A stretch of DNA of 64,000 bases from a virus (taxonomy: Duplodnaviria > Caudoviricetes): positions 2,556 to 66,555 of IMG/VR virus record IMGVR_UViG_3300018495_000012. The stretch is one strand, 5' to 3'. Every line of letters starts with the position of its first letter. Within the stretch, counting starts at the first letter, position 1. The notes beneath the pieces were generated by a model, which saw nothing but the letters and a program-made list of their open reading frames with translations, ran no database searches and had not been told where the DNA came from. Of the stretch, positions 38,927 to 63,990 are shown one piece after another. The position numbers were made by a program, and so were the translations under genes.

Positions 38927-38946
38927 GAAAAGGAGACGAATTAGTC

Positions 38947-46513: not shown

Positions 46514-46538
46514 ATACATCCCCATGTCCCGCGTGAAA

Positions 46539-46563
46539 CGCGATAAATACATGGTCCTTTATA
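46539..46563 (+). promoter_or_regulatory. Motif copy 15
   Basis: CGCG ataaat ACA tggtcct TTATA. Confidence 0.75.
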
Positions 46564-46588
46564 GAAAACATTAAAGGAGGGCCTTGTT

Positions 46589-46738: not shown

Positions 46739-46841
46739 TAACTAAGAAAAGACTTGGTGAGAACATCACTGAGTCTTTCTTTTTTATATTCCACTACCCG
46801 TCACTTAGTCACTGGAAATACATTTAAGGGAGCTGGCTATA

Positions 46842-47204: not shown

Positions 47205-47206
47205 TC

Positions 47207-47581
47207 ATGAAAACCGAGAAATGGTATAACAAACGATTACGTGAGTATTTTATGGATCACTATGGAGAGCATGAGTATGATTCTGAATGGTTTGTAAATC
47301 CAGCACCGAACAAATGGAAATGCTACCTACCAGGACCTCAGTTGACTATCACATTCGCTTGTGACGACGATGGTGAGGTTACAGAGTATATTCACGGTTT
47401 AAATATGAGACCCGAGGTTTTATATTCTATCGTGCAAGCTGCCGGACGTGGCATGGACGCTCTGTATGAGGATTTTATTATCCACCTTGTCGGCGAAGAA
47501 GGTTTTCAAGTATTACGAACTCACAAGAAACTATTAACTTGTGGGTCTATTAACGGGCGTAATCTATATACGCTAAATTGA
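47207..47581 (+). CDS. Hypothetical protein, 124 aa
   Basis: RBS AAGGAGG; terminator 47589-47620. Confidence 0.7.
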   Translation: MKTEKWYNKRLREYFMDHYGEHEYDSEWFVNPAPNKWKCYLPGPQLTITFACDDDGEVTEYIHGLNMRPEVLYSIVQAAGRGMDALYEDFIIHLVGEEGFQVLRTHKKLLTCGSINGRNLYTLN

Positions 47582-47644
47582 TATTTTAAGAGGGTCCGCT
47601 TCGGCGGGCTCTTTAGTTTTTATTAATGAAAAGGAGAAAAAAGT

Positions 47645-48820
47645 ATGAACGAGTTCAAAAACATAGCGACAATTGAATGGGCACATGCGTATTTGACCAA
47701 TCGTGGTTTTTCAGTTGAGTCGCACCCTGTAACTCAGCAAAACGTATCGTACGATATTTCTATTCGCAAAAACGGATTTTATAGAAAAGAACGAATCTAT
47801 GGATTATGTAATGTTTCTTATGAGGTGGCAATACAACGTTTAAATCGAATGATTCGCGATTTTGAAAAAGATTATTGTACAAGAGAAGTAAGTTCGACAT
47901 GTCCTGATCGTCATTCATGTTCTAGTTATGCATTTCGTAGGAATGGCTGCATAGGATGTTCTGAATTTGAAAAGGAGAAAAACAAAATGAAAAACATTGT
48001 ATTTGATATTTCAAGAGACGGACCGGTAGACAAGCTGGTTATGAAGGATAATGTGTACGATGTATGCGTTAAAGAAGTGGATTCTTATGGCTCACCCTAC
48101 GATACGAAAACTGTTCTTAAGGCTGAAATCACAGATAAGTCGCCGATTAGATACGAGCCTAAAATCACGACGAGAACAGACGGTATAATGGCTCAGATAG
48201 AGGCATATAAAGTTATGACCACTTACAACCCCGATCGCAAAGACTCCATCAACGAAGGTAAACTTCAGATTAAGGACGTTATATTCAATCCGCCTGCTAC
48301 TATCGTATTCTGGTCTGATGGATCAAAGACTGTAGTGAAGGCTGCGAACGAGGTATACGATCCCGAGAAGGGTCTTGCTATGGCGATTGCTAAGCGAGCT
48401 ATGGGCAACCAGGGCAACTACTTCGAAACGTTTAAGAAGTATGTTGATCCGTATAACGAGAAGTGCATCGGTGATATTTCAGAATTCGCTAGGATTTTCG
48501 CTAGTATTGTTAGTGGAAAACCTATAGCTAAAGTTAAATCCGTAGAAGAAACCGAGACTGGAGTTACTGTAAAAGCTGAACTTAACAAACCTCTTCCTGA
48601 AAAACCTTACCGCATCTGGTACTCATATTACCACTCATCGGATGGAAGCTTTGCTGGTTCAGGCGTGTATCATAAAGAATACATACGTAAGTGTGATGCT
48701 TCCAGGATCGCTAAGAAACGATATATCAGTAACGATAAAATTACAGTTCGTTGGATGGTAGCTCAGGAGAACCCTTGGATTAGCGGTGAATGGGAAAAGA
48801 AATTCGGAAGTGACAGCTGA
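47645..48820 (+). CDS. Hypothetical multi-module protein
   Basis: 391 aa; contains IKDVIFNPPATIVFWSDGSKTVVK..DPEKGLAMAIAK block. Confidence 0.65.
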   Translation: MNEFKNIATIEWAHAYLTNRGFSVESHPVTQQNVSYDISIRKNGFYRKERIYGLCNVSYEVAIQRLNRMIRDFEKDYCTREVSSTCPDRHSCSSYAFRRNGCIGCSEFEKEKNKMKNIVFDISRDGPVDKLVMKDNVYDVCVKEVDSYGSPYDTKTVLKAEITDKSPIRYEPKITTRTDGIMAQIEAYKVMTTYNPDRKDSINEGKLQIKDVIFNPPATIVFWSDGSKTVVKAANEVYDPEKGLAMAIAKRAMGNQGNYFETFKKYVDPYNEKCIGDISEFARIFASIVSGKPIAKVKSVEETETGVTVKAELNKPLPEKPYRIWYSYYHSSDGSFAGSGVYHKEYIRKCDASRIAKKRYISNDKITVRWMVAQENPWISGEWEKKFGSDS

Positions 48821-50043
48821 TGGCGATTCAGCTACGAGACTATCAGCTAGACGCTATTGAACGAATGTCTAACGGCTGCATACTCAACGGCGGAGTTGGA
48901 TCTGGTAAATCTCGTACGGCGCTTGCATACTATTACAAAGAGCAAGGCGGAGATTTGCATTCCGACCGCTATAAAGAGATGGATAAACCGAAAGACCTAT
49001 ACATAATCACTACGGCGCGAAAACGAGATACTTTGGAATGGGAAGGCGAAATGGCACCGTTCCTAATCACTACAAAACCTGACTTAGCAATCTACCATAA
49101 TCACAAGGTTGTAGTGGACTCGTGGAATAACATAAAAAAGTATCAAGATGTGTACGGGGCATTCTTTATATTTGACGAGCAGAGAGTTGTCGGTTCTGGA
49201 GCGTGGGTAAAGGCATTCTTAAAGATTGCAAGAAAAAACAAATGGATTCTTTTATCTGCGACTCCAGGAGACACTTGGACTGATTATATTCCGGTGTTTG
49301 TTGCTAATGGGTTCTATAGAAATAAAACAGAATTCATTAACAAGCATGTTATATATCGATGGGTAAATAAGAGTTATCCTAAAATCGATAGGTACATAAA
49401 CACCGGACGACTAATCAAGCTGCGAAATCAAATCTTGGTCGACATGGATTTCCATCGAAGTACGGTGTCACATCATAACGATATCTTTGTTCAGTATGAT
49501 ATTTTGAAATACAAGGAACTGACTAAGCATCGTTGGAACCCGTATACGAATGAACCGGTAATCAATGCTGCTGAGTTATGTTACACCTGGAGACGAATCG
49601 TAAACGAAGACCAATCAAGGCAAGTAGCATTGCTTGAGCTGTTCGAGAAACATCCTAAGATGATAGTCTTCTATAACTTCGATTATGAGCTTGATATTCT
49701 AAGAGGCATATTCGAAGCTTCTGGTACGACCTACGCAGAATGGAACGGACATAAGCATCAACCTATTCCGGAAGGAAAACAATGGGTTTACTTAGTTCAG
49801 TATACTGCCGGCTGTGAAGGGTGGAACTGTATAACAACTGATACGATAGTATTCTACTCTCAGAACTATAGCTATAAAGTTATGGAGCAGGCTAGAGGAC
49901 GAATCGATCGAATGAATACGCCATTTATCAATTTATATTACTATCATCTAAAGAGCAGAGCGCCTATCGACTTAGCTATTAGTAGAGCCGTAGCTTCAAA
50001 GAAGAGCTTTAATGAGTCTAGGTACGCTAGTCGCTTCGCGTAA
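48820..50043 (+). CDS. Superfamily 2 (SNF2-like) helicase
   Basis: GVGSGKS, IFDEQR, LLSATP, QARGRIDR. Confidence 0.85.
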   Translation: MAIQLRDYQLDAIERMSNGCILNGGVGSGKSRTALAYYYKEQGGDLHSDRYKEMDKPKDLYIITTARKRDTLEWEGEMAPFLITTKPDLAIYHNHKVVVDSWNNIKKYQDVYGAFFIFDEQRVVGSGAWVKAFLKIARKNKWILLSATPGDTWTDYIPVFVANGFYRNKTEFINKHVIYRWVNKSYPKIDRYINTGRLIKLRNQILVDMDFHRSTVSHHNDIFVQYDILKYKELTKHRWNPYTNEPVINAAELCYTWRRIVNEDQSRQVALLELFEKHPKMIVFYNFDYELDILRGIFEASGTTYAEWNGHKHQPIPEGKQWVYLVQYTAGCEGWNCITTDTIVFYSQNYSYKVMEQARGRIDRMNTPFINLYYYHLKSRAPIDLAISRAVASKKSFNESRYASRFA

Positions 50044-50061
50044 ATTGCATCCGATATTATG
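50037..50061 (+). promoter_or_regulatory. Motif copy 16
   Basis: CGCG taaatt GCA tccgata TTATG, followed by AAAGGA. Confidence 0.7.
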
Positions 50062-50077
50062 AAAGGATGTGTTGTAT

Positions 50078-50260
50078 ATGAAAAAACTATCAAAAGAACA
50101 GGTTGAACATCTTGTTGAAATCTGTCCGGTAATATCTCAAATAGGAGTAGCTAAAATGATATTAGCGGCAAATGGTAAACGAGTTGTAGATGAAAAATAC
50201 GATAAAGATAGTGGAATGTATACTTTCACGATTATTGAAAGGACTAATAGTCTAGGCTGA
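50078..50260 (+). CDS. Cassette ORF, 60 aa
   Basis: Start moved to the ATG after AAAGGATGTG; terminator 50246-50281. Confidence 0.65.
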   Translation: MKKLSKEQVEHLVEICPVISQIGVAKMILAANGKRVVDEKYDKDSGMYTFTIIERTNSLG

Positions 50261-50283
50261 AAAAGCTTAGGCTATTTTCTTTC

Positions 50284-50308
50284 CGCGTAAAAAACATAGT
50301 CCTTTATG
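50284..50308 (+). promoter_or_regulatory. Motif copy 17
   Basis: CGCG taaaaa ACA tagtcct TTATG, followed by AAAGGA. Confidence 0.75.
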
Positions 50309-50323
50309 AAAGGATGTGATTGT

Positions 50324-50512
50324 ATGTTTAAAGACATTTTTAGATTGAGAGAGAGGGTTTCGGATCTTGAATATGAGGTTCAATCGTTGAGGAATTTACT
50401 TAATGTAAGTATTGACACAAACAGTATGCTGGTTAAGAGGGTTCTAAAATTAGAAGACGAAATAGCTAAGATCTCTAAAACAACTCAAAATAATACTAAA
50501 ACGTCTACATAA
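50324..50512 (+). CDS. Cassette ORF, 62 aa coiled coil
   Basis: LRERVSDLEYEVQSL; terminator 50525-50560 nearly identical to 50246-50281. Confidence 0.65.
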   Translation: MFKDIFRLRERVSDLEYEVQSLRNLLNVSIDTNSMLVKRVLKLEDEIAKISKTTQNNTKTST

Positions 50513-50632
50513 ACACATAAAGACAATAGTCTAGGCTAAAGCAGCTTAGGCTATTTTCTTTTTAAATTTATATTTATAGCCCTAGCAAAGCTAGGCTTTC
50601 GGTCAAAGACCGAGAAGAAAGGAGTGATCTTT

Positions 50633-50800
50633 ACGGATTACTGTTCACAATGCGCTAAATGCGTCTATGACAAAGCACGAGGGTTGCATCGTTGCGAGGT
50701 ATTCAGGCACGAGATACTTTGGTCTGATAGATATTTAGCGTGCGATCGCTTTAATACAATTAAAAACTCACCGGAGGAAAAAGACAATGAGATGTCCTAA
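50633..50800 (+). CDS. Cys-rich 55-aa ORF with apparent ACG start
   Basis: AAGGAG 8 nt before ACG; (M)DYCSQCAKC...HRC...AC. Confidence 0.45.
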   Translation, partial: TDYCSQCAKCVYDKARGLHRCEVFRHEILWSDRYLACDRFNTIKNSPEEKDNEMS

Positions 50801-51005
50801 ATGTGGAAGAGTAGCTGGTCAGATGGACCACGTTATTACTGATGAAAACGAAGTGTACAGAGAGCTCTATTGTAAGAGTTGTAATTACAAGTTCTACACT
50901 ATCGAATATGAGGTAGAGCGTAACAACCAGTTCGCAGCGGAGTGGAAAAAGTACAGCACTAAAAAAGCTAGACAGAGAATCATTAAAGATTACGGGATAA
51001 GATAA
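50787..51005 (+). CDS. Zinc-ribbon protein
   Basis: CPKC...CKSC. Confidence 0.7.
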   Translation: MRCPKCGRVAGQMDHVITDENEVYRELYCKSCNYKFYTIEYEVERNNQFAAEWKKYSTKKARQRIIKDYGIR

Positions 51006-51064
51006 GGAGATTATTGATGAAAATTTTGAAAGGAGAAATACTTATGAAATGGAGAAAATAAAGT

Positions 51065-52009
51065 ATGGAAACATGGAAAAAAGCGGCACTTAAGTACAAA
51101 TCTAAAGGGCTGAAACTCGGAGAAATCGTAGAAATAATCGAGGAGGAATTTGGTCTCGAGAACATGTACGGACGAGTTAGTCAGTACCTACATCGTGAGA
51201 AAAAGAAGAAAAAACCCAAACTTGAAAAACGAGTATCTATCCAAAACCAAGAGCCCGAGCATTATGAGGGTAAGTGGGACGGAACAGAGACTCTTCGTTT
51301 CGCTGTAATGGGCGATACACAGGTCGGTAGTAAATACACGCAGCTTACACACCTTCATAACTTCTATGATATTTGCGAGAAGGAAGGGATTAAAGACGTG
51401 TATCATACTGGTGATCTGACGGACGGGTTGAAAATGCGTGTCGGTCACGAATATGAATTGTACGAGGTGTCCGCTGACGAAATGAGAGATGATGTGGTTA
51501 AGAACTATCCTAAACGCGATGGTATCACTACTCACTTCATTACAGGAAACCGTGATGCAAGTATTTACAAGCAAGTAGGTTACGACATTGGTCAGGCTAT
51601 TGCAATGTTGAGACCTGATATGGAGTACTTAGGACGAGATTGCGCAGTCGTTAATCTCACTCCTAACTGTACTCTCGAATTAAGACATCCCTGGGACGGT
51701 TCGGCATATTCATTGAGTTATAGACCTCAGAAGATGATCGAATCTATGGACGATGACTCTAAACCTACTATATTAGCGATAGGTCATTATCATAAACAGG
51801 GAGACTTCCTCTTTAGAGGTGTTCACGCGATGTTAACTGCTAGTTTTCAGAGTCAGACACCATTTCTTAGAGGAAAGAGTATTGCGTCTATAATCGGTGG
51901 TTATATAGTAACTATTAAGGTGGATAAGGACGGATTCATTCGCGGATTCCAGCCTGAATTTATACACTATAAGAAACCGATTAAGGACGACTATAAAAAT
52001 TTTAAATAA
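51065..52009 (+). CDS. Calcineurin-like metallophosphoesterase
   Basis: GDTQ, HTGDLTDG, TGNRD, GHYH motifs. Confidence 0.8.
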   Translation: METWKKAALKYKSKGLKLGEIVEIIEEEFGLENMYGRVSQYLHREKKKKKPKLEKRVSIQNQEPEHYEGKWDGTETLRFAVMGDTQVGSKYTQLTHLHNFYDICEKEGIKDVYHTGDLTDGLKMRVGHEYELYEVSADEMRDDVVKNYPKRDGITTHFITGNRDASIYKQVGYDIGQAIAMLRPDMEYLGRDCAVVNLTPNCTLELRHPWDGSAYSLSYRPQKMIESMDDDSKPTILAIGHYHKQGDFLFRGVHAMLTASFQSQTPFLRGKSIASIIGGYIVTIKVDKDGFIRGFQPEFIHYKKPIKDDYKNFK

Positions 52010-52027
52010 TTAAAGGAGAAAAAAACT

Positions 52028-52147
52028 ATGAACGAAACTGTATTGAAAATCATGGATTTGTTAAAGGAATCTGGAATGCCGTATCGAGTTCTTTGCGATG
52101 GAGAAACAGGCGGCTACACAATCACAATTAAAGAAAAAACTAACTAA
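52028..52147 (+). CDS. Hypothetical 39-aa protein
   Basis: RBS AAAGGAG; read manually. Confidence 0.5.
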   Translation: MNETVLKIMDLLKESGMPYRVLCDGETGGYTITIKEKTN

Positions 52148-52225
52148 TTAAAATTTTATACCACAACCCTAGTAACACTAGGGGCGCCAACCTACTGGTT
52201 GTGCGGAAAGGAGAGAATTATTGTT

Positions 52226-53023
52226 ATGAGTATTAGTATGAAAAATATTGAGAGAAGCGTGAATGCTGCGTTAGGACTTCCTACGTTTAAAAAAGAGACA
52301 CCAAAAGTAGAAATTCCCGAATGGATCTGGGTTGAAGGTTATAAAGGCACTGATAAAGATATGAAGTGCCGTGATTATCAGTATGAACTCGGTAAGCAAT
52401 TTGACATGCCTGAGGATGCTGAAATCGATTTGTGCAGTAGTGGTTTTCATTTCTGTCAGAAGCTTAAGGACGTATTTAAATACTATGATGTTAAGAACGG
52501 TAATCGTTTCTTTAAAGTAACAGCGCTTATACGTACTGGTGAGATTAAAAAATTAGATACCCCCCTCAATATTTGGTCAGTTGGTTCTTGGAGTATTGAC
52601 TCTAAAGAAACTTCGAAATCTATTGTATTCACCAGAGAGCTCACAACCGACGAAATTCTTGAAGCTAAGGAAGATTGTTCACTCGGAGATTTTACCGAGG
52701 AAGAGAAAGTTCTGATTAGAGAAGTCGGAATAGATGATATTTATAATATCAGAAAGATAGCGGATCTTGAAGCAATCGGTTACGCACACGAGGTAGCAGA
52801 TATTATCGTTAGAAGATACACTTTTGACACATATGATCTCGCCATGGCGCTTTCTAAGCAGACTGATATTTCTATGGACGCGAGGGTTATTGCCGTCTTT
52901 AGCGCACATGGCGAACGTAAAAAATATGTCGATGAGTTTGTCACAAAGAACTTTACCTTCCCTATAACAAACCCTTACATCCAACCGCTTTCAGCAACTA
53001 AGACACGCGGAAGAAAAAACTAA
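52226..53023 (+). CDS. Hypothetical protein with GYKG..DMKCR.YQY..GFHFC domain (DUF7666-like)
   Basis: Motif recognised by eye; start moved to the ATG after AAGGAG. Confidence 0.55.
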   Translation: MSISMKNIERSVNAALGLPTFKKETPKVEIPEWIWVEGYKGTDKDMKCRDYQYELGKQFDMPEDAEIDLCSSGFHFCQKLKDVFKYYDVKNGNRFFKVTALIRTGEIKKLDTPLNIWSVGSWSIDSKETSKSIVFTRELTTDEILEAKEDCSLGDFTEEEKVLIREVGIDDIYNIRKIADLEAIGYAHEVADIIVRRYTFDTYDLAMALSKQTDISMDARVIAVFSAHGERKKYVDEFVTKNFTFPITNPYIQPLSATKTRGRKN

Positions 53024-53049
53024 TTATTGATATTTAAAGGAGAAACAAA

Positions 53050-53226
53050 ATGCCTAAATCAATACTTGTAAGTTACGTAGAAAACGAGAATCCGTACGAG
53101 TCAATACTTGTTGTCGGGAAGAAGCGCAAAAACCAATCTGTTGAGATTATTAACGCGTTCTCTGGAGCTGAAGCTACGGAGCTTTGGAATAAACTCATTA
53201 CTAAGAGGGAGAAAACAAATGAGTAA
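53050..53226 (+). CDS. Hypothetical 58-aa protein
   Basis: RBS AAAGGAG; MPKSILVSY...KTNE. Confidence 0.55.
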   Translation: MPKSILVSYVENENPYESILVVGKKRKNQSVEIINAFSGAEATELWNKLITKREKTNE

Positions 53227-53386
53227 ATGTAACACTTGCAAACTCGCTTTATTCAATCCTGTATGGGGCGAATACAAATGCTCTAAGACTGGATTGATTA
53301 TATACGATATAAACACTAAGGAAGGTTGTAAGGACTATAAACAGGGCGAACCTGGAATGTCTAAGGATTTACCGGAGGAGAAGTAA
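53219..53386 (+). CDS. Small Cys-rich protein
   Basis: MSKCNTC...C...C; start moved from ORF-track 53108. Confidence 0.55.
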   Translation: MSKCNTCKLALFNPVWGEYKCSKTGLIIYDINTKEGCKDYKQGEPGMSKDLPEEK

Positions 53387-53414
53387 ATTATGAAAAGATA
53401 TTATTAAAAAAACT

Positions 53415-53439
53415 CGCGCAAAAAACATGCTCCTTTATG
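53415..53439 (+). promoter_or_regulatory. Motif copy 18
   Basis: CGCG caaaaa ACA tgctcct TTATG. Confidence 0.75.
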
Positions 53440-53465
53440 ACAATAAATTAAAGGAGAATAAAATT

Positions 53466-53621
53466 ATGAAGAAAAGAATATTATACCGTTTACTCGGTTT
53501 GGCGTTGACTATATTTTCGATATGGTTTATTCCGCATAGTGGCGGAGATGGAGGATATCTAGTATTTTCAATACCACTCGGGTTATGGATACTATTCGGA
53601 CCTAAAGAAATGTTCGATTAA
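53466..53621 (+). CDS. Cassette ORF, 51 aa, two TM helices
   Basis: RBS AAAGGAG; terminator 53630-53666. Confidence 0.7.
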   Translation: MKKRILYRLLGLALTIFSIWFIPHSGGDGGYLVFSIPLGLWILFGPKEMFD

Positions 53622-53692
53622 TTTAAAGAAAAAAGAGGGGTACTCGTAACAGGGTATCTCTCTTTTAAATTTTTGAAAGGAAGGAAAAATTG

Positions 53693-53845
53693 ATGGCTGA
53701 TGAAAAATTAAAACAAAAGGTTGAAGTGCACGAGCAAGCACTAAAGCTGCAAACTAATATTAATTACGGTTTCGTCGACCTATTAAAAGACCTTACTGCA
53801 AGAATTGAACTTTTAGAGAAGAAATTGGAGGAGAATAAGCGATGA
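53693..53845 (+). CDS. Hypothetical 50-aa coiled-coil protein
   Basis: Read manually; RBS GAAAGGAAGG. Confidence 0.55.
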   Translation: MADEKLKQKVEVHEQALKLQTNINYGFVDLLKDLTARIELLEKKLEENKR

Positions 53846-54261
53846 GTGATGGTTTGATAACTTTTGATAAGCCATTAAAGATAGATTGCTACCATTGCGG
53901 AAAATTCATAGACATTGAAAAGACGATATATATGGACAATCATCATTTCTGTCCCGACTGTTATGAAAAAATTAAAAAAGAGTCTGTAAAGAAATCATCA
54001 AAGCCCGCTACGGACGTAGACATCCACAAGATCATTGACGATGCGATGGAGAAGAAGGATCGTAGCGTTACTATATTTATCAACAAGGATGCTACTACTG
54101 TTAGCGTGTATCCATATGAGGATAAACCCTTAGCATGGGTTGAGTCTACGAAAACGAATTATTCATACCAATGCCCAACGTGTGGTGATCACTTTAGAAC
54201 ACAGTCTCCATACTGTCCAACATGCGGAGAAAAATTAAAGTTCATCAATATTTATGACTAA
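53842..54261 (+). CDS. Zinc-finger protein
   Basis: CYHC, CPDC, CPTC, CPTC. Confidence 0.7.
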   Translation: MSDGLITFDKPLKIDCYHCGKFIDIEKTIYMDNHHFCPDCYEKIKKESVKKSSKPATDVDIHKIIDDAMEKKDRSVTIFINKDATTVSVYPYEDKPLAWVESTKTNYSYQCPTCGDHFRTQSPYCPTCGEKLKFINIYD

Positions 54262-54273
54262 AGGAGAGAATTT

Positions 54274-55470
54274 ATGGCTGATGTAAAAATTTTCACTGAT
54301 AACATCGAACATGAAGCCGTCAATCAAATAAACACGCTTATTGAACAACCGGCTTTTTCGGACTGTAAAGTGCGCATCATGCCTGACGTTCATGCGGGCG
54401 CTGGATGTGTAATAGGGTTTACGGCTGATCTGGGTGACAAAGTTATTCCTAATATAGTTGGAGTCGATATTGGTTGCGGAATGTATACAATTAAACTTGG
54501 TAAATGTGATATTAACTTTGACAAGCTCGATTCTACAATTAGAGCTAAGATACCTTCAGGACGAAATGTTTACGGAAACTTGTGCCCGGACTATGTAAAA
54601 CATAGAAGTCAAGAGCTAATAGACAAGCTTAATTGTAAATATGAACTTCGTAACCGAGATTGGTTAATACATTCGTTAGGAACTCTCGGAGGAGGCAATC
54701 ATTTCATCGAAATAGACGAGGATAATAGCGGTGATAAATATCTCATCGTCCATAGCGGTAGTAGAAATCTCGGAAAACAGGTTGCTGACATATACCAAAG
54801 AAAAGCTATCACACGCTTATATTCCAAGAAAGATGAAAGAGCAGCTATAATTGAAAAACTCAAAAAAGAAGGTCGAGAAACAGAAATTCAAAACGAATTA
54901 TCCAAATTGTCGTTTAAGCAGCGAACCGCACCTCCTAAAGAACTCTGTTATCTTGAAGGGTCGGATAGAGATGATTATCTGTTCGACATGAGAATTTGTC
55001 AGAGATTTGCTAAGTGCAACCGAGAAATAATTGCTAGGCGCATTTGTATAGGCATGGGCTGGGATTGGGCTGATAACCGCGGATTTCATACAGTTCATAA
55101 CTATGTTGATAGCGACAATATGGTTCGTAAAGGTGCAATTTCTGCTAGACAAGGAGAGCTTCTACTTATACCTATAAATATGCGCGATGGTTGTATATTA
55201 GGTGTTGGTAAAGGTAATGAAGATTGGAATCATTCGGCCCCTCATGGCGCTGGACGTATTATGAGTCGTATTAAAGCCAAAGAAATGCTGTCTATAGATG
55301 ATTTTAAAGAGTCTATGAATGGTATTTTTACGACATCTGTGAATGAATTCACGATAGATGAAAGTCCAATGGCATACAAACCGATGGATGAGATTATATC
55401 GAATATCAAAGACACGGTAAACATCGTTACAATAATTAAACCTATTTATAATTTTAAAGCATGTGATTGA
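54274..55470 (+). CDS. rtcB: RtcB-family RNA ligase
   Basis: MPDVHAG, GVDIGCG, GTLGGGNHFIE, HSGSR, HNY, RKGA, SAPHGAGR, DESPMAYK. Confidence 0.95.
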   Translation: MADVKIFTDNIEHEAVNQINTLIEQPAFSDCKVRIMPDVHAGAGCVIGFTADLGDKVIPNIVGVDIGCGMYTIKLGKCDINFDKLDSTIRAKIPSGRNVYGNLCPDYVKHRSQELIDKLNCKYELRNRDWLIHSLGTLGGGNHFIEIDEDNSGDKYLIVHSGSRNLGKQVADIYQRKAITRLYSKKDERAAIIEKLKKEGRETEIQNELSKLSFKQRTAPPKELCYLEGSDRDDYLFDMRICQRFAKCNREIIARRICIGMGWDWADNRGFHTVHNYVDSDNMVRKGAISARQGELLLIPINMRDGCILGVGKGNEDWNHSAPHGAGRIMSRIKAKEMLSIDDFKESMNGIFTTSVNEFTIDESPMAYKPMDEIISNIKDTVNIVTIIKPIYNFKACD

Positions 55471-55564
55471 TATTTAAAGGAGAGAATTTATGGCTACTGA
55501 AAAGAAAAACGAAAGAAAACACGAGCTTAAGGATATTCAGCTCTTTGAAGAGGAGTAAAAAAAT

Positions 55565-55732
55565 ATGACTACACTTGAATTTGCGAAAAAATGCCTGGGT
55601 AAGGCACAGAAAAATCTCGAAAGAGCTAAGACTAGACCTGGTGTCACTAAAGAGGAACTTGATGCATTGACTGAGAAGCTTATGCATTATAAAAACATCA
55701 TTTATATTCTCGAGAGGGAGGATATGAGATGA
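55565..55732 (+). CDS. Hypothetical 55-aa protein
   Basis: RBS GAGGAG; read manually. Confidence 0.55.
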   Translation: MTTLEFAKKCLGKAQKNLERAKTRPGVTKEELDALTEKLMHYKNIIYILEREDMR

Positions 55733-56079
55733 AAGTTAGAGCCATTTGGGAATTTGATGCTGACGTGTCTGATATTTCGTCGGAGCATGTGGACGTCGAA
55801 GGACATGCAAAAGATTTGGCGAAGAACGAACTCAGTTGGTGGATGTCGGAAAGAGGATGTCTATTCGCTGACGAATTTACGTTTGAGGTTGTTAAGGAGT
55901 CGCCTGAAGATGAACGTAGTCTATATAACAGCATGTGTTGTAGCGCCATTAATGAAAACATAATATATGCCACTCAAGAAGTGTACGAACGCATGAGGGC
56001 TAATCGTAAAAACATTATAGTTGACTCTAAAGGTAAACCTCGTATGGTATTAAAAGTTATTAAGAAAGGAAATGATTGA
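55729..56079 (+). CDS. Hypothetical protein, 116 aa
   Basis: RBS GGGAGG; ORF track. Confidence 0.65.
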   Translation: MKVRAIWEFDADVSDISSEHVDVEGHAKDLAKNELSWWMSERGCLFADEFTFEVVKESPEDERSLYNSMCCSAINENIIYATQEVYERMRANRKNIIVDSKGKPRMVLKVIKKGND

Positions 56080-56205
56080 TGAGCGATAAAGATAATCCAA
56101 TAACTCGTGAAGAGCTGGAACTGATTATAAAACAAATGATTAATTTAGAAATAAGCATGTCGAATGACGGACATCCGTTTTATCGATAGAAAAGGAGAAA
56201 GATTG

Positions 56206-56520
56206 ATGACTAACTTATATTACATATGCAACATCGGGTGCGATGCCGAGACACATGGTCTTGCGCGTATATCTGATGAGGATTTCCCTAAGTTTAAAGA
56301 AATCATAGAGAACCTTAATAAGAACTCTACATATGGCTGTATGCCAAAGATCGAGGTGTATAAGATATTCGAAGGGTTAATTATGGAATACAGCGGTAAT
56401 ATTTCTGATTCTACGAACTTACATCTTGACGGGCGAGTGTATATTCTCGCGACGGGTTCTATATACAACTATAAAAACGGAAAAAACGAATTGATTGAAG
56501 GAGTTGAACGAGTAATATGA
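56206..56520 (+). CDS. Hypothetical protein
   Basis: Start moved to the ATG after AAAGGAG. Confidence 0.6.
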   Translation: MTNLYYICNIGCDAETHGLARISDEDFPKFKEIIENLNKNSTYGCMPKIEVYKIFEGLIMEYSGNISDSTNLHLDGRVYILATGSIYNYKNGKNELIEGVERVI

Positions 56521-57290
56521 TCAAACTTGAAAATACGATAACACCTTCGCCTGGACAGTGGATGATAACTGTATTAGGCGCTCGTAACGCGATGAATAGC
56601 TGGGATCGTAGCGACAGCGAGATTAAGTATGAAAACGTACGCGATTCCACTGGATATTTAGACATGGGTCCGAACGATCATGATTTACTTATGAGACTTA
56701 GAAATGCAGGTACGGATCACAGAAAATATTTGAGAATGCTGCCTGTACACGTAAACATAACAGCTCCGCTTTATTGGTGGAAGGAATTCGATACTTACAA
56801 AATCGGGACTACTGCGAACTCTTGCTCAACTATGCACAAGATTCATGAGAAGGAGTTTACTCTTGATGACTTTAGCCATGAGCATTTGCTGTACGATCAC
56901 GATGATGAGGTTTGTCCGGTTAGAGCGGGTTTATATTTTGAGGTTCGACCACCCATTAACGAAGATTTTGTATGGAACAAATTCATTTCGCCAAAAAGTG
57001 GACTCGAAATAATTATAGAACTGCTTAATACGAATCGAGAACTATTCCTTGAAACTAAAGACAAGCGTTACTGGTGGCAGATGATCCAGCTTCTTCCCAG
57101 CTCGTATAACCAGAAACGTACGGTTATGTTGAATTACGAGGTTTTGGCGAATATCTATAAGTCTCGTAAGAATCATAAACTTCAGGAATGGTTGGAGCTG
57201 TGTAAGTGGATCGAGGGGCTGCCTTATAGTGAGTTGATTACGGGTAATATCGGTAATGGCGAAGCCAGCGATGGTGGGGTGAAGGAATGA
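56517..57290 (+). CDS. ThyX-like (flavin-dependent thymidylate synthase fold) protein, divergent
   Basis: ARNAMNSW, HRKYLR, ITAPLYWWKEFDTY..NSCST, QLLPSSY; canonical RHR motif absent. Confidence 0.45.
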   Translation: MIKLENTITPSPGQWMITVLGARNAMNSWDRSDSEIKYENVRDSTGYLDMGPNDHDLLMRLRNAGTDHRKYLRMLPVHVNITAPLYWWKEFDTYKIGTTANSCSTMHKIHEKEFTLDDFSHEHLLYDHDDEVCPVRAGLYFEVRPPINEDFVWNKFISPKSGLEIIIELLNTNRELFLETKDKRYWWQMIQLLPSSYNQKRTVMLNYEVLANIYKSRKNHKLQEWLELCKWIEGLPYSELITGNIGNGEASDGGVKE

Positions 57291-57601
57291 AAGCATCTTA
57301 TGTTTTACCATCCGGTAACTATAACATTCTATTAGAAAAAGATGATCTTTTAACGTTGTTAGAAAAAGGACATATTTGTGTAACCCCGTTGAAACATGTG
57401 CCTTGTACGTCGAGTAGAGCTCTTTTCGACCCTGATAAGTCTGAAATGAATATACTCGATAAACATGACGTGCCTAACATGTTAATGTTTTATCTGGACG
57501 AACCAGTAGCAGACATTGACGCTGGGGAACATTATGTTCAGTTTCTAACTCTCAATATAGAAGACGACGTGTTGAAAGAAATCAAAAAGGAAGTGAATTG
57601 A
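57287..57601 (+). CDS. Hypothetical protein, 104 aa
   Basis: ORF track; overlapping start. Confidence 0.6.
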   Translation: MKASYVLPSGNYNILLEKDDLLTLLEKGHICVTPLKHVPCTSSRALFDPDKSEMNILDKHDVPNMLMFYLDEPVADIDAGEHYVQFLTLNIEDDVLKEIKKEVN

Positions 57602-57750
57602 TGAAAGTAGCAATATTGATATTTTGTGGTCTGGTTGCTATGTGTATCGGGTACGGTCCATTTGTGATGTCTGGTAAATTGAGCGAACAGGAGAGGAAGA
57701 GAAAACAAAGAGGAGAAAAAAATCAACACTCTAGATAATGGAGGAACTTT

Positions 57751-58410
57751 ATGAGTAATAATAACAAACAAAAGAGTTGCTGGTGGTGCCTAACTATGAT
57801 AATCGTATACGCAATTATTATATTTGTATTTACGATATTCATACACGTCAAAGTGCTCGCTATTGAGTCCGCTACATATGAACCGTCGGTAACACCGTGT
57901 GAGAGTCCGATTGTGGATACTCCTATGATTAATATTGAAGAAGAGATAGTCATCGCTGAGACAGAACCTGTCGTGCCTGCTGTGAGGTATTTTGACGTTC
58001 CGTTGAGTGAAGACTTGCAGGATCATATATTTGCAGTATGTGAGAGTTATGGTGTGGATCCTGTAGTAGTCATGGCGGTGATTAAGAAAGAATCAATGTT
58101 TAAAGCTGGTGAGATTGGCGATAGCGGAAACTCATTCGGCTTGATGCAGATTCAACCTAGATGGCATGGGGCACCCTATTCCACTAGAATGGAGAGACTT
58201 GGAGTTACTGACTTGTTAGATCCGTACCAGAACGTCATTGTTGGCATTGATATTTTGGCTGAGTTATTCAGCAAAGGCGGATCTTTGGAGTGGGTTTTGA
58301 TGTCGTACAATGGAGGTTATGCGCATGCAAACAATCATATTGCTAATGGCACTGTTAGTGATTATGTTGCTATTGTTACGAATTATATGAACACAATTGA
58401 AAGGAAATGA
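57751..58410 (+). CDS. Membrane-anchored lytic transglycosylase (SLT domain)
   Basis: N-terminal TM; AVIKKES catalytic Glu, GLMQI, SYNGG. Confidence 0.85.
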   Translation: MSNNNKQKSCWWCLTMIIVYAIIIFVFTIFIHVKVLAIESATYEPSVTPCESPIVDTPMINIEEEIVIAETEPVVPAVRYFDVPLSEDLQDHIFAVCESYGVDPVVVMAVIKKESMFKAGEIGDSGNSFGLMQIQPRWHGAPYSTRMERLGVTDLLDPYQNVIVGIDILAELFSKGGSLEWVLMSYNGGYAHANNHIANGTVSDYVAIVTNYMNTIERK

Positions 58411-58622
58411 TATTTATGGATTACAAGATGAGAGAATTAAAAAAGAACGGTGAGGGTTATGACGATCCTACCGCATATGAAGCTATTAAGAAAATAGACC
58501 CTACTGCTAGAAAACGTTATAGATTGATAGGGTGTATTTTGAGAATTTGTGAGCTTGCCGGGTACGAGGTTGTCGGGCGAATAGAGCTTAGAGATGTGAA
58601 GACTGGTAAGGTTTATAAGTGA
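58407..58622 (+). CDS. Hypothetical protein, 71 aa
   Basis: KKNGEGYDDPTAYEAI; ORF track. Confidence 0.65.
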   Translation: MIFMDYKMRELKKNGEGYDDPTAYEAIKKIDPTARKRYRLIGCILRICELAGYEVVGRIELRDVKTGKVYK

Positions 58623-58624
58623 TT

Positions 58625-58980
58625 TTTGTGGTCACTTTTATGTGTCCTGCCCACTTTTATATTTGACCACGAATCGTTGAAAAATTTACTGGTCAAAAAA
58701 AGTGGGTTTTTGCCCGGTTTTGTGAAACAAAAATGGCCAGCAAATTGGTCAAAAACTTAAACAAAAGTTTAAGAAACTTAAACAATTGTTTAAGAAACTT
58801 AAACAAAAGTTTAAGAAATTGAGGTATTTTTAGCTCTCTGGCCAAATGGTCACTTTTTTTTCTTAAAAGTTTTAAAAAATAAAAACTTAAACAATTGTTT
58901 AAGAAACTTAAACAAAAGTTTAAGAATTAAAAATATAAAAGTTTTAGCAAAAAAATCTGGCCATTTGACCAAAGTGTATT
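58625..58980. repeat. AT-rich palindromic repeat array, candidate replication origin
   Basis: Five 18-bp palindromes CTTAAAC-(AAAA/AATT)-GTTTAAG at 58756, 58777, 58798, 58886, 58907 (21-bp period), flanked by inverted AAATGGCCAG/CTGGCCATTT and TTGGTCAAA/TTTGACCAA. Confidence 0.75.
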
Positions 58981-58995
58981 TTTGAGAGGAGAATT

Positions 58996-59418
58996 ATGCA
59001 ATACAATAATAAATTTGATTCAATATTAGAACGAATGTCTAAGATATTTCCGTCGATCCATGCAAAGGTTGTGAGCTGGTATCCAAGCGATAAAAGCGAA
59101 ATCGTTGTGATTCTTGATGACGGTGTTAAGATGGCATACGAAAGTTTTGATGATACGATACGTACTATCAAGTCTGAATACATATCTTCTGAGGTTATGG
59201 ATGAGGTGTCTTACAGAAAAAAGTTTTCGGACGCTCTCCGATATCAGATGAGGATGTCAGGAATAATGCAATACGAACTTTCCGAACAGACCGGAATATC
59301 TGTACAGACACTTAGCAAGTATTTGAGAGGTACGGCTACCCCAAGCGCATACAATATATTCAAGATTGCTAATGCTCTCGGATGTCCTATTTCAAAACTT
59401 ATAAGCTACGATATTTGA
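58996..59418 (+). CDS. Protein with C-terminal XRE HTH
   Basis: MQYELSEQTGISVQTLSKYLRG..PSAYNIFKIANALG. Confidence 0.8.
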   Translation: MQYNNKFDSILERMSKIFPSIHAKVVSWYPSDKSEIVVILDDGVKMAYESFDDTIRTIKSEYISSEVMDEVSYRKKFSDALRYQMRMSGIMQYELSEQTGISVQTLSKYLRGTATPSAYNIFKIANALGCPISKLISYDI

Positions 59419-59429
59419 AAGGAGAATGT

Positions 59430-59591
59430 AATATGGGATGGGTAATTAGTTTAATGCTTTTGATAGGCGGTGCTTTTACCAAGCAGACCTATACAGGTGA
59501 CGCAATACTTATTGCGAGTGCTTTGTTCGCAATTGCTGGTTCTTTAGGCGGAGCTGCAAATATATTAGTAAGTAAGATTAATAAACATTAA
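59430..59591 (+). CDS. Small two-TM protein
   Basis: MGWVISLMLLIGG..ILIASALFAIAG; RBS AAAGGAG; terminator 59603-59640. Confidence 0.6.
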   Translation, partial: NMGWVISLMLLIGGAFTKQTYTGDAILIASALFAIAGSLGGAANILVSKINKH

Positions 59592-59656
59592 TAAGTATTG
59601 TTAGAAGGGTCCGTGTAAATCACATGGGCTCTTCATTTTTATCCGTTTTCGGCAGA

Positions 59657-59681
59657 CGCGAAAAATACATGCCCTTTTATG
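59657..59681 (+). promoter_or_regulatory. Motif copy 19 (heads the nuclease-RNA polymerase operon)
   Basis: CGCG aaaaat ACA tgccctt TTATG. Confidence 0.75.
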
Positions 59682-59759
59682 AGAGAAAGAATAAAATGCG
59701 GTTTTTTATAAACATGCACTTTCTCTTTTATCTTTTAGAAGTGAAAGGAGAGAGTCACT

Positions 59760-60646: not shown

Positions 60647-63619
60647 ATGAACCCTGTGGTTGAAGAAATGTGCGCCATCCTTGATGGTGATGAAGATATG
60701 TTAATGCATATCGGCGTAAAAAGACGTTCAGGGCGTTATCCCTGGGGTTCGGGTGAAGATCCGTATCAACGCCAGAATCTCGACTTTTTAGGTAGAGTTA
60801 AAGAGATGAAGGATAAGGGAATGCGCGAACCTGAAATCGCAAAAGCCCTTGAAATAGTTAATGATTTAGGCGAACCATCAACTGGTCGTCTCAGAGCTCA
60901 GGAAAGATGGGCTAAAGATGAAGTTAAGCTTATGAATATTCAGACAGCTAAACGTTACCGCGATAAAGAAAGAATGGGTCCTACTGAAATTGGTAGAGCG
61001 ATGGGTGTTCCTGAATCTACAGTTCGTGGCTGGTTGAAAGAAGAAGCTGAACTGAAAGTTAGAGAAGCTAGACAGACTGTTGACTTCTTAAGAGACCAAG
61101 TTAATCAGAAGAAAATGGTTGACGTAGGTACAGATGTTGAGCGAGAACTTAACATATCAAAAGAAAGACTCGTTGAAGCTTTAAACGTTCTTGAGAATGA
61201 AGGCTACCATATTTACAAAGGTGGTATTCCTCAGGCGACTAACCCTGGTAAACAGACTAACCAGAAAGTGTTAGCTACTCCTGAAACAGAGTATAAAGAA
61301 ATCTATGATTTCGATAAAGTTAAATCAGTAACTGATTACATATCCAGAGATGGTGGGGAAACTTATGAAAAGAAGTTCCATTATCCTGAAAGTTTGGATT
61401 CTAAACGCCTTATGATTCGTTATAAAGAAGATGGTGGTATTGATAAAGACGGTGTTATTGAGCTTCGTAGAGGTGTCGAAGATTTGTCGCTTGGTGAGTC
61501 TAGATATTCTCAGGTTCGTATAATGGTAAACGGCACGCACTATCTTAAAGGTATGGCCGTGTATTCCGATGATATGCCTGACGGCGTCGATGTAATATTC
61601 AATACTAACAAAACTAAAGATACTCCGGCGTTAGGTCCTAAAAATAATACAGTACTTAAGATTATTAAGAATGACCCTGACAATCCGTTCGGTTCTGCAA
61701 TTAAAGATGCTGAACAAGGCGGTCAATACTGGTATACAGATAAGAATGGTAAGAAGAAGCTTGGCCTCATCAATAAGCGTGCAGATGAAGGTGACTGGGA
61801 AGAATGGAAGGATGCACTTCCATCGCAGTTCCTCGGCAAACAGAACATTACAATGATAAAGAAGCAGCTTGGTATAGCTAAGGCTGATAAGATGGCAGAG
61901 TATGAAGAGATATGTTCACTCACTAATCCTACGATTAAGAAACATATGTTGGAAGACTTTGCTAATAACTGTGACGCTGCTGCTGTACACTTAAAGGCTG
62001 CCGCATTACCTGGTCAGAAGTACCATGTGATCATGCCTATCAACACACTTAAAGATACAGAGTGCTATGCTCCGAACTATAAAGATGGAACTAAGCTTGC
62101 TCTTGTTCGTTATCCTCATGGAGGCACATTCGAAATACCGATAGTAACAGTTAACAATAAGCATGCTGCTGGTAGAAAACTTTTAGGTACTGATGCAACT
62201 GATGCGATAGGTATCAATAGTAAAGTAGCTGAAAGATTATCCGGTGCTGACTTTGACGGCGACACTGTTATGGCTATACCTACTCATGATAGTAAAGGTA
62301 GAGTTAAGATAACCAACAGAGATCAGTTACCTGGATTGATTGGCTTCGATCCTAAGATGGCATATCCTGAGCGTCCTGGTATGAAGTATATGAAGAACAC
62401 TCAGACCGAGATGGGAATAATCTCAAACCTTATTACTGATATGACATTGATAGGCGCTAACGATGCTGACTTAGCTAAAGCGGTTAGACATAGCATGGTA
62501 GTAATCGATGCGGAAAAGCATAATCTTGACTATAAGAAGAGTGAGTTGGAGAACAATATTAAAGCATTAAAAGAAAAGTATCAGATAAAAGTGGATGAGA
62601 ACGGTGAGATAAAAACCGGAGGTGCATCTACAATATTATCTAGAGCGAAGGGCGAAATGTCCATTCCTAAGAGACAAGGTACTCCTAAGATCAATATTAA
62701 AGGTAGTAAGGACTATGATCCTAGTAGACCTGAGGGATCTCTTCTGTATAAAACAGCCGATGATCTTTGGTATCCAGTACGCAAGTACGATAAGAATACC
62801 GGTGAAGTAACTCTTAGGACTGATAATGGTAAAAAAATAGTATACAACATGAACGATAAAGACGCAGTCGACATGTACAACCCCGTCAAGAGAGTTAACG
62901 ATAAGACCGGAGAGATCTACTTCACAAATAAAACTGGCGATATCACATACCGTAAGGACTATAAGAAGGACCAGAGTACCAACATGGCAGAGACAGATGA
63001 TGCATACTCCCTGGTATCACAGATGAGACACCCCAAGGAGCTCGTGTATGCTGAGTACGCTAACGATATGAAAGCCCTTGCTAATAAGGCTAGAAAAGAG
63101 ATAGTTAATACTAAGAAGATAGCCTACTCTGCATCTGCTAAAGATACATACCGTGAAGAAGTACGTTCTCTTAATGACAAGCTTGATAATGCTAGACTGA
63201 ATGCTCCTAGGGAAAGAGCTGCTCAGCGTATAGCTAACTCTGTAATTAAATCTAAGACTGAATCTAATCCTAATATGTCAAAAGAAGATTTAAAGAAAGA
63301 GAGAAATAGAGCATTAAAAGTAGCTCGTCAAGAAGTCGGCGCTATAGCTAGACGTAAGAGAAACATAGATATTACTGATAGAGAATGGGAAGCTATACAA
63401 GCTGGTGCTGTCAGTGAAAACATACTTAAGAGTATACTTAACAACACTGATGCTGACAAACTAAGACAAAGAGCAACGCCTCGCGCTACTACTTCGCTTA
63501 GTCCTGGACAGATAAGTAGAATCAAAGCTATGAGCGCATCATATACACAAGCTCAGATCGCTGAGAAGCTTAACTTGTCACCTTCCGCAGTATCGAAAGC
63601 ATTGAAAGGAGCGAATTAA
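60647..63619 (+). CDS. Single-chain double-psi-beta-barrel RNA polymerase (YonO-like)
   Basis: LSGADFDGD (DFDGD 62249-62263), LVRYP (62108), several HTH-like segments; no partner beta/beta-prime gene in the window. Confidence 0.8.
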   Translation: MNPVVEEMCAILDGDEDMLMHIGVKRRSGRYPWGSGEDPYQRQNLDFLGRVKEMKDKGMREPEIAKALEIVNDLGEPSTGRLRAQERWAKDEVKLMNIQTAKRYRDKERMGPTEIGRAMGVPESTVRGWLKEEAELKVREARQTVDFLRDQVNQKKMVDVGTDVERELNISKERLVEALNVLENEGYHIYKGGIPQATNPGKQTNQKVLATPETEYKEIYDFDKVKSVTDYISRDGGETYEKKFHYPESLDSKRLMIRYKEDGGIDKDGVIELRRGVEDLSLGESRYSQVRIMVNGTHYLKGMAVYSDDMPDGVDVIFNTNKTKDTPALGPKNNTVLKIIKNDPDNPFGSAIKDAEQGGQYWYTDKNGKKKLGLINKRADEGDWEEWKDALPSQFLGKQNITMIKKQLGIAKADKMAEYEEICSLTNPTIKKHMLEDFANNCDAAAVHLKAAALPGQKYHVIMPINTLKDTECYAPNYKDGTKLALVRYPHGGTFEIPIVTVNNKHAAGRKLLGTDATDAIGINSKVAERLSGADFDGDTVMAIPTHDSKGRVKITNRDQLPGLIGFDPKMAYPERPGMKYMKNTQTEMGIISNLITDMTLIGANDADLAKAVRHSMVVIDAEKHNLDYKKSELENNIKALKEKYQIKVDENGEIKTGGASTILSRAKGEMSIPKRQGTPKINIKGSKDYDPSRPEGSLLYKTADDLWYPVRKYDKNTGEVTLRTDNGKKIVYNMNDKDAVDMYNPVKRVNDKTGEIYFTNKTGDITYRKDYKKDQSTNMAETDDAYSLVSQMRHPKELVYAEYANDMKALANKARKEIVNTKKIAYSASAKDTYREEVRSLNDKLDNARLNAPRERAAQRIANSVIKSKTESNPNMSKEDLKKERNRALKVARQEVGAIARRKRNIDITDREWEAIQAGAVSENILKSILNNTDADKLRQRATPRATTSLSPGQISRIKAMSASYTQAQIAEKLNLSPSAVSKALKGAN

Positions 63620-63622: not shown

Positions 63623-63898
63623 ATGGGTAGAGCCGTTGCATTAACAACATTCGATAATCCTTTTGATCCATTTGAACAATTCGATTCTTGGTTCTTGTTC
63701 GATGTTGAGAAAGGTTACAATTCTTGTGGTTATTTAGCAAGAATAGCAAAAACTTCTGATACATTCTCTGATGAAGAGAACAATGCAGAAATAGAAAGAG
63801 CGATTGATGAAATAATTTTGTATGATTTCTTAAACATTTATAAGAAAGTAACAAAAGAGATCGCGGATCCTCCTGAAACAACGGAGACCGACACGTAA
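63623..63898 (+). CDS. Hypothetical 91-aa protein coupled to the RNA polymerase gene
   Basis: Starts 3 nt after the polymerase stop; LTTFDNPFDPF..W..FD..KGY. Confidence 0.7.
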   Translation: MGRAVALTTFDNPFDPFEQFDSWFLFDVEKGYNSCGYLARIAKTSDTFSDEENNAEIERAIDEIILYDFLNIYKKVTKEIADPPETTETDT

Positions 63899-63903: not shown

Positions 63904-63990
63904 TAGGGGGGGGGTAGTCTAAAAAGCACCCCCTACCCAAATCGCCGCCCTCCTAAAAAATTCCCCGGAGGAAAAATTTGAAAAAGCATT
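63904..63990. other. G/C-rich hairpin and quasi-palindrome, candidate packaging-site region
   Basis: G9 run 63906-63914 pairs with CCCCCTA 63929-63935; AAAAATTCCCCGGAGGAAAAATTTGAAAAA at 63956. Confidence 0.35.

Follow-up and report, generated by a model that had tools for sequence, protein, structure and literature searches.

The window analysed here comprises 64,000 nucleotides, bases 2556-66555 of the 66,555-bp IMG/VR virus record IMGVR_UViG_3300018495_000012, in which a 49-bp end repeat marks a closed assembly. The source is an uncultured gut phage, and the nearest genome-borne relatives lie in metagenome-assembled genomes of Clostridia/Eubacteriales. The gene considered here, close to the right end of the window, encodes a protein of 990 residues that an earlier note, made from the sequence alone, had read as a single-chain RNA polymerase with several built-in helix-turn-helix (HTH) modules. 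The open reading frame (ORF), its ADFDGD and RYP motifs and the HTH-like segments were all found where that note had placed them. The parts of the gene are as follows, conservation referring to an alignment of 60 relatives (44-61% identity).

60647..63619, plus strand: predicted RNA polymerase gene, an ORF of 990 residues (PHROG 4291; 38% identity to orf75 of Lactococcus phage 1706)
60695..60781, plus strand: conserved disordered N-terminal peptide, residues 17-45, LMHIGVKRRSGRYPWGSGEDPYQ (from conserved columns; predicted local distance difference test score, pLDDT, <55)
60785..61282, plus strand: putative N-terminal DNA-binding arm, with an HTH-like pair (47-90), an HTH_23 module (100-132) and a winged-helix-like module (160-212)
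61379..63106, plus strand: predicted two-barrel catalytic core, residues 245-820
61547..61555, plus strand: KGM (K301-M303) of the first, beta-like barrel, invariant in the 60 relatives
62108..62116, plus strand: RYP (R488-P490), with R488 and P490 invariant
62246..62263, plus strand: ADFDGD metal-binding loop, residues 534-539, with D535, D537 and D539 invariant
63107..63616, plus strand: C-terminal helical arm ending in an HTH (residues 965-988, nucleotides 63539-63610)

Residues 13-728 match phrog_4291 of the PHROGs collection ('RNA-dependent RNA polymerase') with 1157 bits, and Pfam recognizes HTH modules only. The invariant positions of the alignment include R488, P490, D535, D537, D539, K301, G302 and M303. 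GADFDGD occupies residues 533-539, so that the metal-binding DxDGD loop of the beta'-like barrel is present, and K301 of the KGM motif we take, from likeness of the motif rather than from a superposition, to be the equivalent of the beta-subunit lysine motif. The arginine and proline of RYP belong to the eight universal residues given by Ruprich-Robert and Thuriaux (PMC2919709). An AlphaFold2 model built on the 60-relative alignment reached a pLDDT of 85.8 and a predicted template modelling score of 0.75, and a Foldseek search of the PDB returned, at E <1e-3, exclusively two-barrel polymerases, led by QDE-1 (1.8e-7), with plant RDR2 and the proteins gp64/gp62 of Thermus phages P23-45 and P74-26 next. 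Because the invariant motifs, the model and the structural matches agree, the two-barrel (double-psi beta-barrel) catalytic fold that the earlier note had predicted stands, as a modelled fold. The gene product is best described as a predicted single-chain DNA-dependent RNA polymerase of the two-barrel class, whose activity and template we infer. Its ADFDGD is the sole D-F-D-G-D among all ORFs of the genome, and no ORF encodes another DxDGD protein or a fusion of the polymerase to a structural protein.

In the model, residues 1-45 are disordered, and residues 47-245 and 821-990 form helical arms that carry the HTH modules. Within the N-terminal arm, residues 100-132 match Pfam HTH_23 with 34.2 bits (cut-off 24.6), and the HTH segment GPTEIGRAMGVPESTVRGWL begins at residue 110 (nucleotide 60974). 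An additional HTH-like pair occupies residues 47-90, and a third HTH-like segment, RELNISKERLVEALNVLENEGY, matches TrmB weakly (E 0.18) and is modelled as a helix (172-184) followed by a beta hairpin (188-210), which would make it winged-helix-like. At the other end of the protein, the segment YTQAQIAEKLNLSPSAVSKAL begins at residue 966 (nucleotide 63542). The HTH of residues 965-988 scores 24.8 bits on Sigma70_r4_2 (cut-off 25.7) and 23.2 bits on Sigma70_r4, under its cut-off, and it also matches HTH_3, MarR and many further HTH families; judged by these profile scores it is a generic HTH, just under threshold. Pfam matches and model thus agree on the presence of several fused HTH modules. 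A sigma-like origin of the arms was considered and rejected: profile searches of the PDB with alignments of the N-terminal and C-terminal arms gave only generic HTH proteins (resolvase, transposase, lambda CI and a tandem-HTH protein, E 0.003-1) and no sigma factor. In place of a sigma-70 region 2 together with a region 4, the polymerase shows sub-threshold region-4 matches only, extending over 21-24 residues.

By sequence comparison the polymerase is a diverged member of the already predicted family of phage 1706 orf75 (PHROG 4291). It is 38% identical to 1706 orf75 over the full length (1039 columns), 36% to the P078 protein and 40-44% to the listed actinophage proteins, the closest isolate or deposited phage protein reaching at most 59%; near-identical DNA was not found among phage isolates. 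Full-length relatives were detected by tblastn in 250 of 50,697 phage records (hosts Arthrobacter 95, Gordonia 55, Streptomyces 54, Lactococcus 13, Faecalibacterium 2, and others), where the gene always lies near the right genome end. A large protein database holds at least 8000 clusters of the family at 90% identity, and 2263 representatives at 50% identity match the polymerase with E 1e-3 or better; nearly all of 120 listed relatives carry precomputed HTH Pfam domains at both ends. The family is very common in gut and soil viromes, and both there and in the tblastn relatives it is mostly annotated as 'HTH DNA-binding protein'. Ruprich-Robert and Thuriaux (2010) recognized five YonO-like families, with 1706 orf75 as the type protein of one of them (PMC2919709), and Koert et al. 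(2021) described the family in silico in an actinophage supercluster and in Lactococcus and Faecalibacterium phages, reporting HTHs at both ends, an HHpred match to the RNA-dependent RNA polymerase family PF05183 and the DxDGD loop, and calling it a signature gene of the phage group (bioRxiv 10.1101/842583). A temperate phage with a family member is likewise known, Faecalibacterium phage Oengus (PMC5883640). The novelty implied by the earlier note was therefore overstated, since the family, its terminal HTHs and its DxDGD loop had been published (bioRxiv 10.1101/842583, PMC2919709). Fold and family had previously been predicted on paper; what is new here is the co-inheritance, across phyla, of the polymerase with a promoter-like motif.

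This motif, CGCG-N6-nCA-N7-TTATGAAA, was found by a repeat search followed by a pattern search, in 19 copies between 29,221 and 59,657 that all lie on the plus strand. The strict pattern gives 18 matches, again all on the plus strand, where 0.15 are expected from shuffles.

29221..59686, plus strand: 19 motif copies (repeat and pattern search; strict pattern)
29221, 29460, 32612, 33025, 33532, 33836, 34087, 34594, 34853 and 35105, plus strand: starts of motif copies 1-10
35302, 35534, 36468, 37521, 46539, 50037, 50284, 53415 and 59657, plus strand: starts of motif copies 11-19

The structural module (1-29 kb) is free of copies, and so are the 2.9 kb that separate the polymerase gene from the terminase gene. 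The confinement of the motif to 29-60 kb fits the earlier expectation of early or middle rather than late targets. Many copies sit right after a terminator T-run and before a ribosome-binding site, and so they act, to judge by position, like promoters for small cassettes, for replication genes and for the operon of the polymerase. Since the three blocks are 10 and 9 bp apart, they would lie on one face of the helix, an arrangement well matched to several HTH modules in line. About half of the copies in this phage read TTTTATG and so do not have the A of the -10 consensus. The literature yielded no description of the motif, the promoter accounts in actinophage papers included, and no RNA sequencing runs containing the phage were found. 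The early region also holds three paralogous DUF6353 genes (35659-36420, 36740-37519 and 38914-39906), of which at least the first two have a motif copy within 300 nucleotides upstream.

Phages of Arthrobacter, Streptomyces and Gordonia share the geometry TCGC-N6-TACA-N5-TATAATGA, that is, TATA(A/G)TGA as the last block. Scored with a position weight matrix (PWM), Arthrobacter phage Gordon has 9 copies and none on the reverse strand; the high-GC genome of Streptomyces phage OlympicHelado has 11 forward and no reverse copies, and Gordonia phage Duffington 8 forward, no reverse and none in a reversed-pattern control. The strong copies of Gordon (10014-14589) and OlympicHelado (5888-13744) are bunched at the start of the early region, with none before the polymerase operon. 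In the Lactococcus phages P078 and 1706, TTTACA-N5-TATA(A/G)T is kept and the upstream block is changed. The last block is a perfect TATAAT in the actinophages and in P078.

The link between motif and polymerase was followed in both directions. A scan of IMG/VR with an exact pattern of 16 specified bases returned at least 114 stretches; among the first 50 of these records, 36 encode the polymerase, as do all 22 of those that CheckV rates at least 90% complete, and the 14 records in which it is missing are fragments at most 66% complete. In the other direction, 80 IMG/VR loci were retrieved by way of their polymerase gene, and a PWM derived from the copies of this window gave 209 forward and 4 reverse matches in them. 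In 70 of these loci the polymerase start is preceded by a copy, mostly at a distance of 0.9-1.5 kb and up to 1.8 kb, and at least six of the other 10 have less than 1 kb of sequence upstream of the gene. Nearly all operon promoters of the 70 relatives read TTTTATG, again without the -10 consensus A. That a motif of about 30 bp stays nearly unchanged across hosts of two phyla with very different GC content argues for a phage-encoded reader. No sigma factor was found among 20 early ORFs, and the sole conserved multi-HTH protein of the lineage is the polymerase. We conclude from these comparisons that the polymerase probably reads the promoter-like motif with which it travels across bacterial phyla. 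The earlier suggestion that the HTHs replace a sigma factor and read a three-part promoter is thus upheld as regards the tight, comparative link between polymerase and motif; the arms, however, show no specific tie to sigma factors, and the recognition itself is what we infer.

The surroundings of the gene, up to the end of the genome, are organized as follows.

59604..59634, plus strand: strong terminator-like hairpin of 13 pairs, insulating the operon from upstream transcription
59655..59686, plus strand: motif copy 19, heading the polymerase operon 990 nucleotides upstream of the start codon
59760-60068, plus strand: nuclease-like ORF of 102 residues (read as VRR-Nuc from the annotation of relatives)
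60070-60642, plus strand: exonuclease (phrog_3953, E 1.4e-73)
63623..63898, plus strand: conserved acidic ORF of 91 residues after the polymerase (phrog_4303, E 3.9e-35; alignment)
63905..63951, no strand assigned: G-run/C-run element, the predicted right cohesive end (…ATCGCCGCCCT), aligned to isolate genome ends

Phages of Gordonia, Arthrobacter, Streptomyces and Lactococcus have the two upstream operon genes in the same arrangement, and in them, too, an exonuclease gene precedes the polymerase, the last large gene on the right, and a small ORF comes after it. The small ORF starts 4 nucleotides past the polymerase stop; all relatives examined have it behind the polymerase, and its sequence is strongly conserved (DNPFDP…W..FD.EKGY…ERAIDEI). 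When compared with isolate genomes, the element at 63905-63951 matches the physical right termini of Duffington, Gordon, OlympicHelado and P078, and the base after it is the first of the virus record. These alignments make it likely that the element is the cohesive-end (cos) site, conserved across phyla. The polymerase gene ends 332 nucleotides from this right cohesive end, with only the 91-residue ORF between, and we take the right end, by analogy with lambda, to be the one that leaves the capsid first. No plus-strand terminator was found between the polymerase operon and the late genes, so that on DNA in circular or concatemeric form the operon transcript could extend into the late genes, a conjectural route to late timing. 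Neither the stretch before the polymerase operon nor the switch region is enriched over shuffles in sigma-70-type promoters.

Just left of the window, at bases 50-190 of the virus record, an inverted repeat of about 28 nucleotides (GATAGTGTTTAAA…TTATAAGACC and its complement) flanks an extended -10-like box, TGGTATAAT, upstream of the first late-module gene; box and repeat together may represent a late promoter of host type and the site of a regulator. Five perfect 18-bp palindromes, CTTAAACAAnnGTTTAAG, in a 21-bp phase (58756-58924; 0.49 expected by chance) lie directly upstream of a gene for a 140-residue XRE-type HTH protein (58996-59418; HTH_3, E 8e-13) and of the polymerase operon. The array could be an operator array for the polymerase switch, or a replication origin, and the XRE-type HTH gene and the palindromes may take part in control of the operon. 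A different palindrome, that of the repressor gene (TTCGCATTATGCGAA), has no further copies above chance near the polymerase operon.

Taken together, the evidence leans towards a reading in which the protein is a sigma-independent, single-chain transcriptase of early and middle genes that reads the motif and also drives its own operon. The N-terminal arm, with its two to three HTH or winged-helix modules, and the C-terminal HTH arm would do the job of a sigma factor by binding the duplex parts of the promoter of about 30 bp, namely TCGCG, TACA 10 bp on and the TATTATGA block 9 bp further, although which part reads which element is conjectural. The A/T-rich last block would then be melted, and synthesis would presumably begin within the run of purines that follows it. 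The 19 promoters would drive the small-gene cassettes and the replication genes, and the one in front of the polymerase's own operon would create positive feedback. With no terminator after it, transcription of this operon may continue through the joined cos site and reach the late genes.

Several points weigh against this reading. The literature search turned up no biochemical study of these proteins, none of which has been shown to synthesize RNA, and the nearest solved structures are of enzymes that also copy RNA or single-stranded DNA, so that the template does not follow from the fold. The HTH modules are generic, with no specific relation to sigma factors. Motif and gene could occur together because the phage lineage as a whole has a common ancestor, and not because the one is directly recognized by the product of the other, and covariation between HTH residues and promoter bases was not shown: the informative positions barely vary in the 80 closest relatives, and between clades there are too few independent changes. 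The lone hint comes from P078, where the second HTH has a different recognition helix and the promoter a different upstream element. In the lytic phages Gordon and OlympicHelado the strong copies occur only 19-27 kb upstream of the gene; the autoregulatory promoter, present in 70 of the 80 IMG/VR relatives (48-64% identical), may belong to one branch only. Finally, the operon has a phage-type promoter only and lies behind a strong terminator, and therefore the first polymerase must be made or brought in some other way. The proposed model leaves this first round of expression unexplained; leaky host transcription or a further factor are also possibilities.

The first round would be accounted for if the polymerase were packed in the capsid by means of its N-terminal peptide and injected with the DNA, starting the early programme and its own operon without the host RNA polymerase. 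The earlier note had pointed to an N-terminal LMHIGVK leader, which is indeed present and conserved: the family form is LxHYG..SGRYPWGSG..PYQ, with G23, S28, G29, R30, G34 and G36 invariant and H21 nearly so. A peptide that is conserved family-wide yet disordered is what a docking signal would look like, and the gene lies 332 nucleotides from the right genome end; moreover, virion RNA polymerases of the two-barrel fold exist in crAss-like phages and in P23-45 (PMC10770324). The peptide also bears a loose L-x-H-x-G-V-K…WG likeness to a DUF7211 (PF23847) protein of this phage, the L-x-H-x-G-V-K being common to both, and a DUF7211 protein of 1706 (orf7) is recorded as structural. The likeness is, however, not significant (8 residues, 2.0 bits, E 6.6 among 979 ORFs), Pfam reports no DUF7211 on the polymerase N-terminus here (residues 1-68, E 0.1) or in 1706, and the 1706 record does not list the polymerase orf75 as structural. 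The gene, furthermore, sits with nuclease and replication genes, closing that module, and not with the head genes. No virion proteomics of relatives was found in the literature. On these grounds the virion-borne use that the earlier note had considered possible is not supported, and we regard delivery in the virion as unlikely.

For the record, the DUF7211 protein is a 105-residue ORF at 28898-29215, after the lysis genes (Pfam DUF7211, ELYHHGVKGMRWGIRK, 36.5 bits), and the same short tag occurs within 1706 orf7, which the 1706 record lists as structural.

A bolder combination of the two ideas, a self-sufficient machine whose arms alone, needing neither sigma nor a host factor, pick the promoter and of which a few molecules ride in with the DNA by way of the N-terminal peptide, so that the early and middle programme, the polymerase's own operon included, is independent of the host RNA polymerase, strikes us as quite unlikely. 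If it were true, lysogeny would hinge on keeping the self-amplifying loop shut.

Doubt is greater still about a reading in which it is the host RNA polymerase that uses the motif, the HTH arms perhaps serving as an activator, and the core has another task linked to the nucleases and helicase nearby, such as RNA synthesis on single-stranded or broken DNA, in the manner of QDE-1, or the priming of replication. The best structural matches, QDE-1 and RDR2, and the constant position of the gene beside the exonuclease and the small nuclease-like ORF, near a helicase, would agree with this, as would the perfect TATAAT of actinophages and P078. The spacing of the motif does not fit a sigma-A promoter, however, as TACA is separated from the A/T block by 5 bp and TCGC by 13-14 bp, and the -10 consensus A is missing in about half of the copies here and in nearly all operon promoters of the relatives. 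The retention of one motif of about 30 bp in phages of Streptomyces, Lactococcus and Clostridia hosts speaks for a reader encoded by the phage, and the nearest characterized phage relative, YonO, is a processive DNA-dependent transcriptase (PMC5467207).

That the polymerase is a catalytic core only, with the HTHs secondary and the promoter chosen by a separate phage protein such as the 91-residue product, is highly improbable: this product is encoded 4 nucleotides after the polymerase stop in every relative examined and is highly conserved, and another non-canonical phage enzyme, the non-virion RNA polymerase of AR9, uses a separate promoter-specificity subunit (cf. the title of PDB 7s01), but the protein is acidic and matches no DNA-binding family, and the polymerase itself has four or so HTH-type modules conserved throughout the family. 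The predicted complex of the 91-residue protein with polymerase residues 91-990 scored 0.13 (mark 0.32), a value that bears on binding in neither direction.

Further genes of the window include two on the minus strand.

29811-31301, minus strand: large serine integrase
31304-31696, minus strand: repressor

With a serine integrase and a repressor facing the early region, the phage is temperate, as the earlier note had held. Between terminase and portal, an ORF of 356 residues (1799-2869) carries a C-terminal papain-fold glutamine deamidase toxin domain (Gln_amidase, 25.7 bits). The replication genes include an RtcB-type RNA ligase (54274-55470; phrog_1075, E 5e-130) and a stand-alone N-terminal Ia domain of a DNA ligase (45717-46016; Pfam Nlig-Ia).

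The most useful result of this analysis is the cross-phylum co-inheritance of polymerase and promoter, as it makes a clear bench test possible. The mode of promoter recognition was stated as an open question for YonO (PMC5467207), and the present family offers a clean handle on promoter finding: an enzyme of about 1000 residues with built-in DNA-binding modules, a sharp consensus of about 30 bp in 8-19 copies per genome, and cultured relatives on the tractable hosts Arthrobacter, Gordonia, Streptomyces and Lactococcus. Should the enzyme read its promoters unaided, it would be a two-barrel counterpart of T7 RNA polymerase, useful for the study of the evolution of transcription initiation and for orthogonal expression in Gram-positive bacteria.

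Compared with known systems, the polymerase shows no difference of kind from the 1706 orf75 / PHROG 4291 family, with which it shares the HTHs at both ends, the DFDGD, RYP and KGM motifs, the N-terminal peptide and the place at the genome end. We regard this family as a distant sister of SPbeta YonO and of the eukaryotic QDE-1/RDR enzymes. YonO is a proven processive DNA-dependent RNA polymerase serving a late operon with one mapped start site (PMC5467207); like the polymerase described here it is a single-chain two-barrel enzyme of a temperate siphophage with a DxDGD loop, but it falls in a different family (PMC2919709), and its one late start site stands against 19 early or middle promoter-like copies and fused HTH arms. 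The 250 tblastn hits at E 1e-5 include no Bacillus/SPbeta record, though the presence of SPbeta in the collection was not confirmed. QDE-1 and plant RDR2 share 10-16% identity with the polymerase, copy RNA or single-stranded DNA without promoters and have no HTH arms. The comparison with sigma-70 extends to region 4, since the C-terminal HTH scores on Sigma70_r4 and Sigma70_r4_2 and its proposed role would likewise be promoter recognition; with no region 2 or 3, and with scores that equal those on many unrelated HTH families, this is a functional analogy at most. A place among structural genes or a fusion to one, as expected of virion-packaged polymerases (N4 vRNAP, gp66 of crAss-like phages, P23-45 gp96), is not seen here, and a second, tape-measure-fused polymerase as in P23-45 was looked for and discarded, as no other DxDGD loop occurs in any ORF. 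P23-45 gp64, which is switched on by that second, virion polymerase, is an early/middle non-virion two-barrel RNA polymerase using a phage-specific motif (PMC10770324). Because gp64 already provides such a use, the early and middle role proposed here is not new to the enzyme class, contrary to what the earlier note had suggested. However, gp64 has about 600 residues and no HTH arms, and the features that would set the present family apart are these fused HTH arms together with the autoregulated operon.

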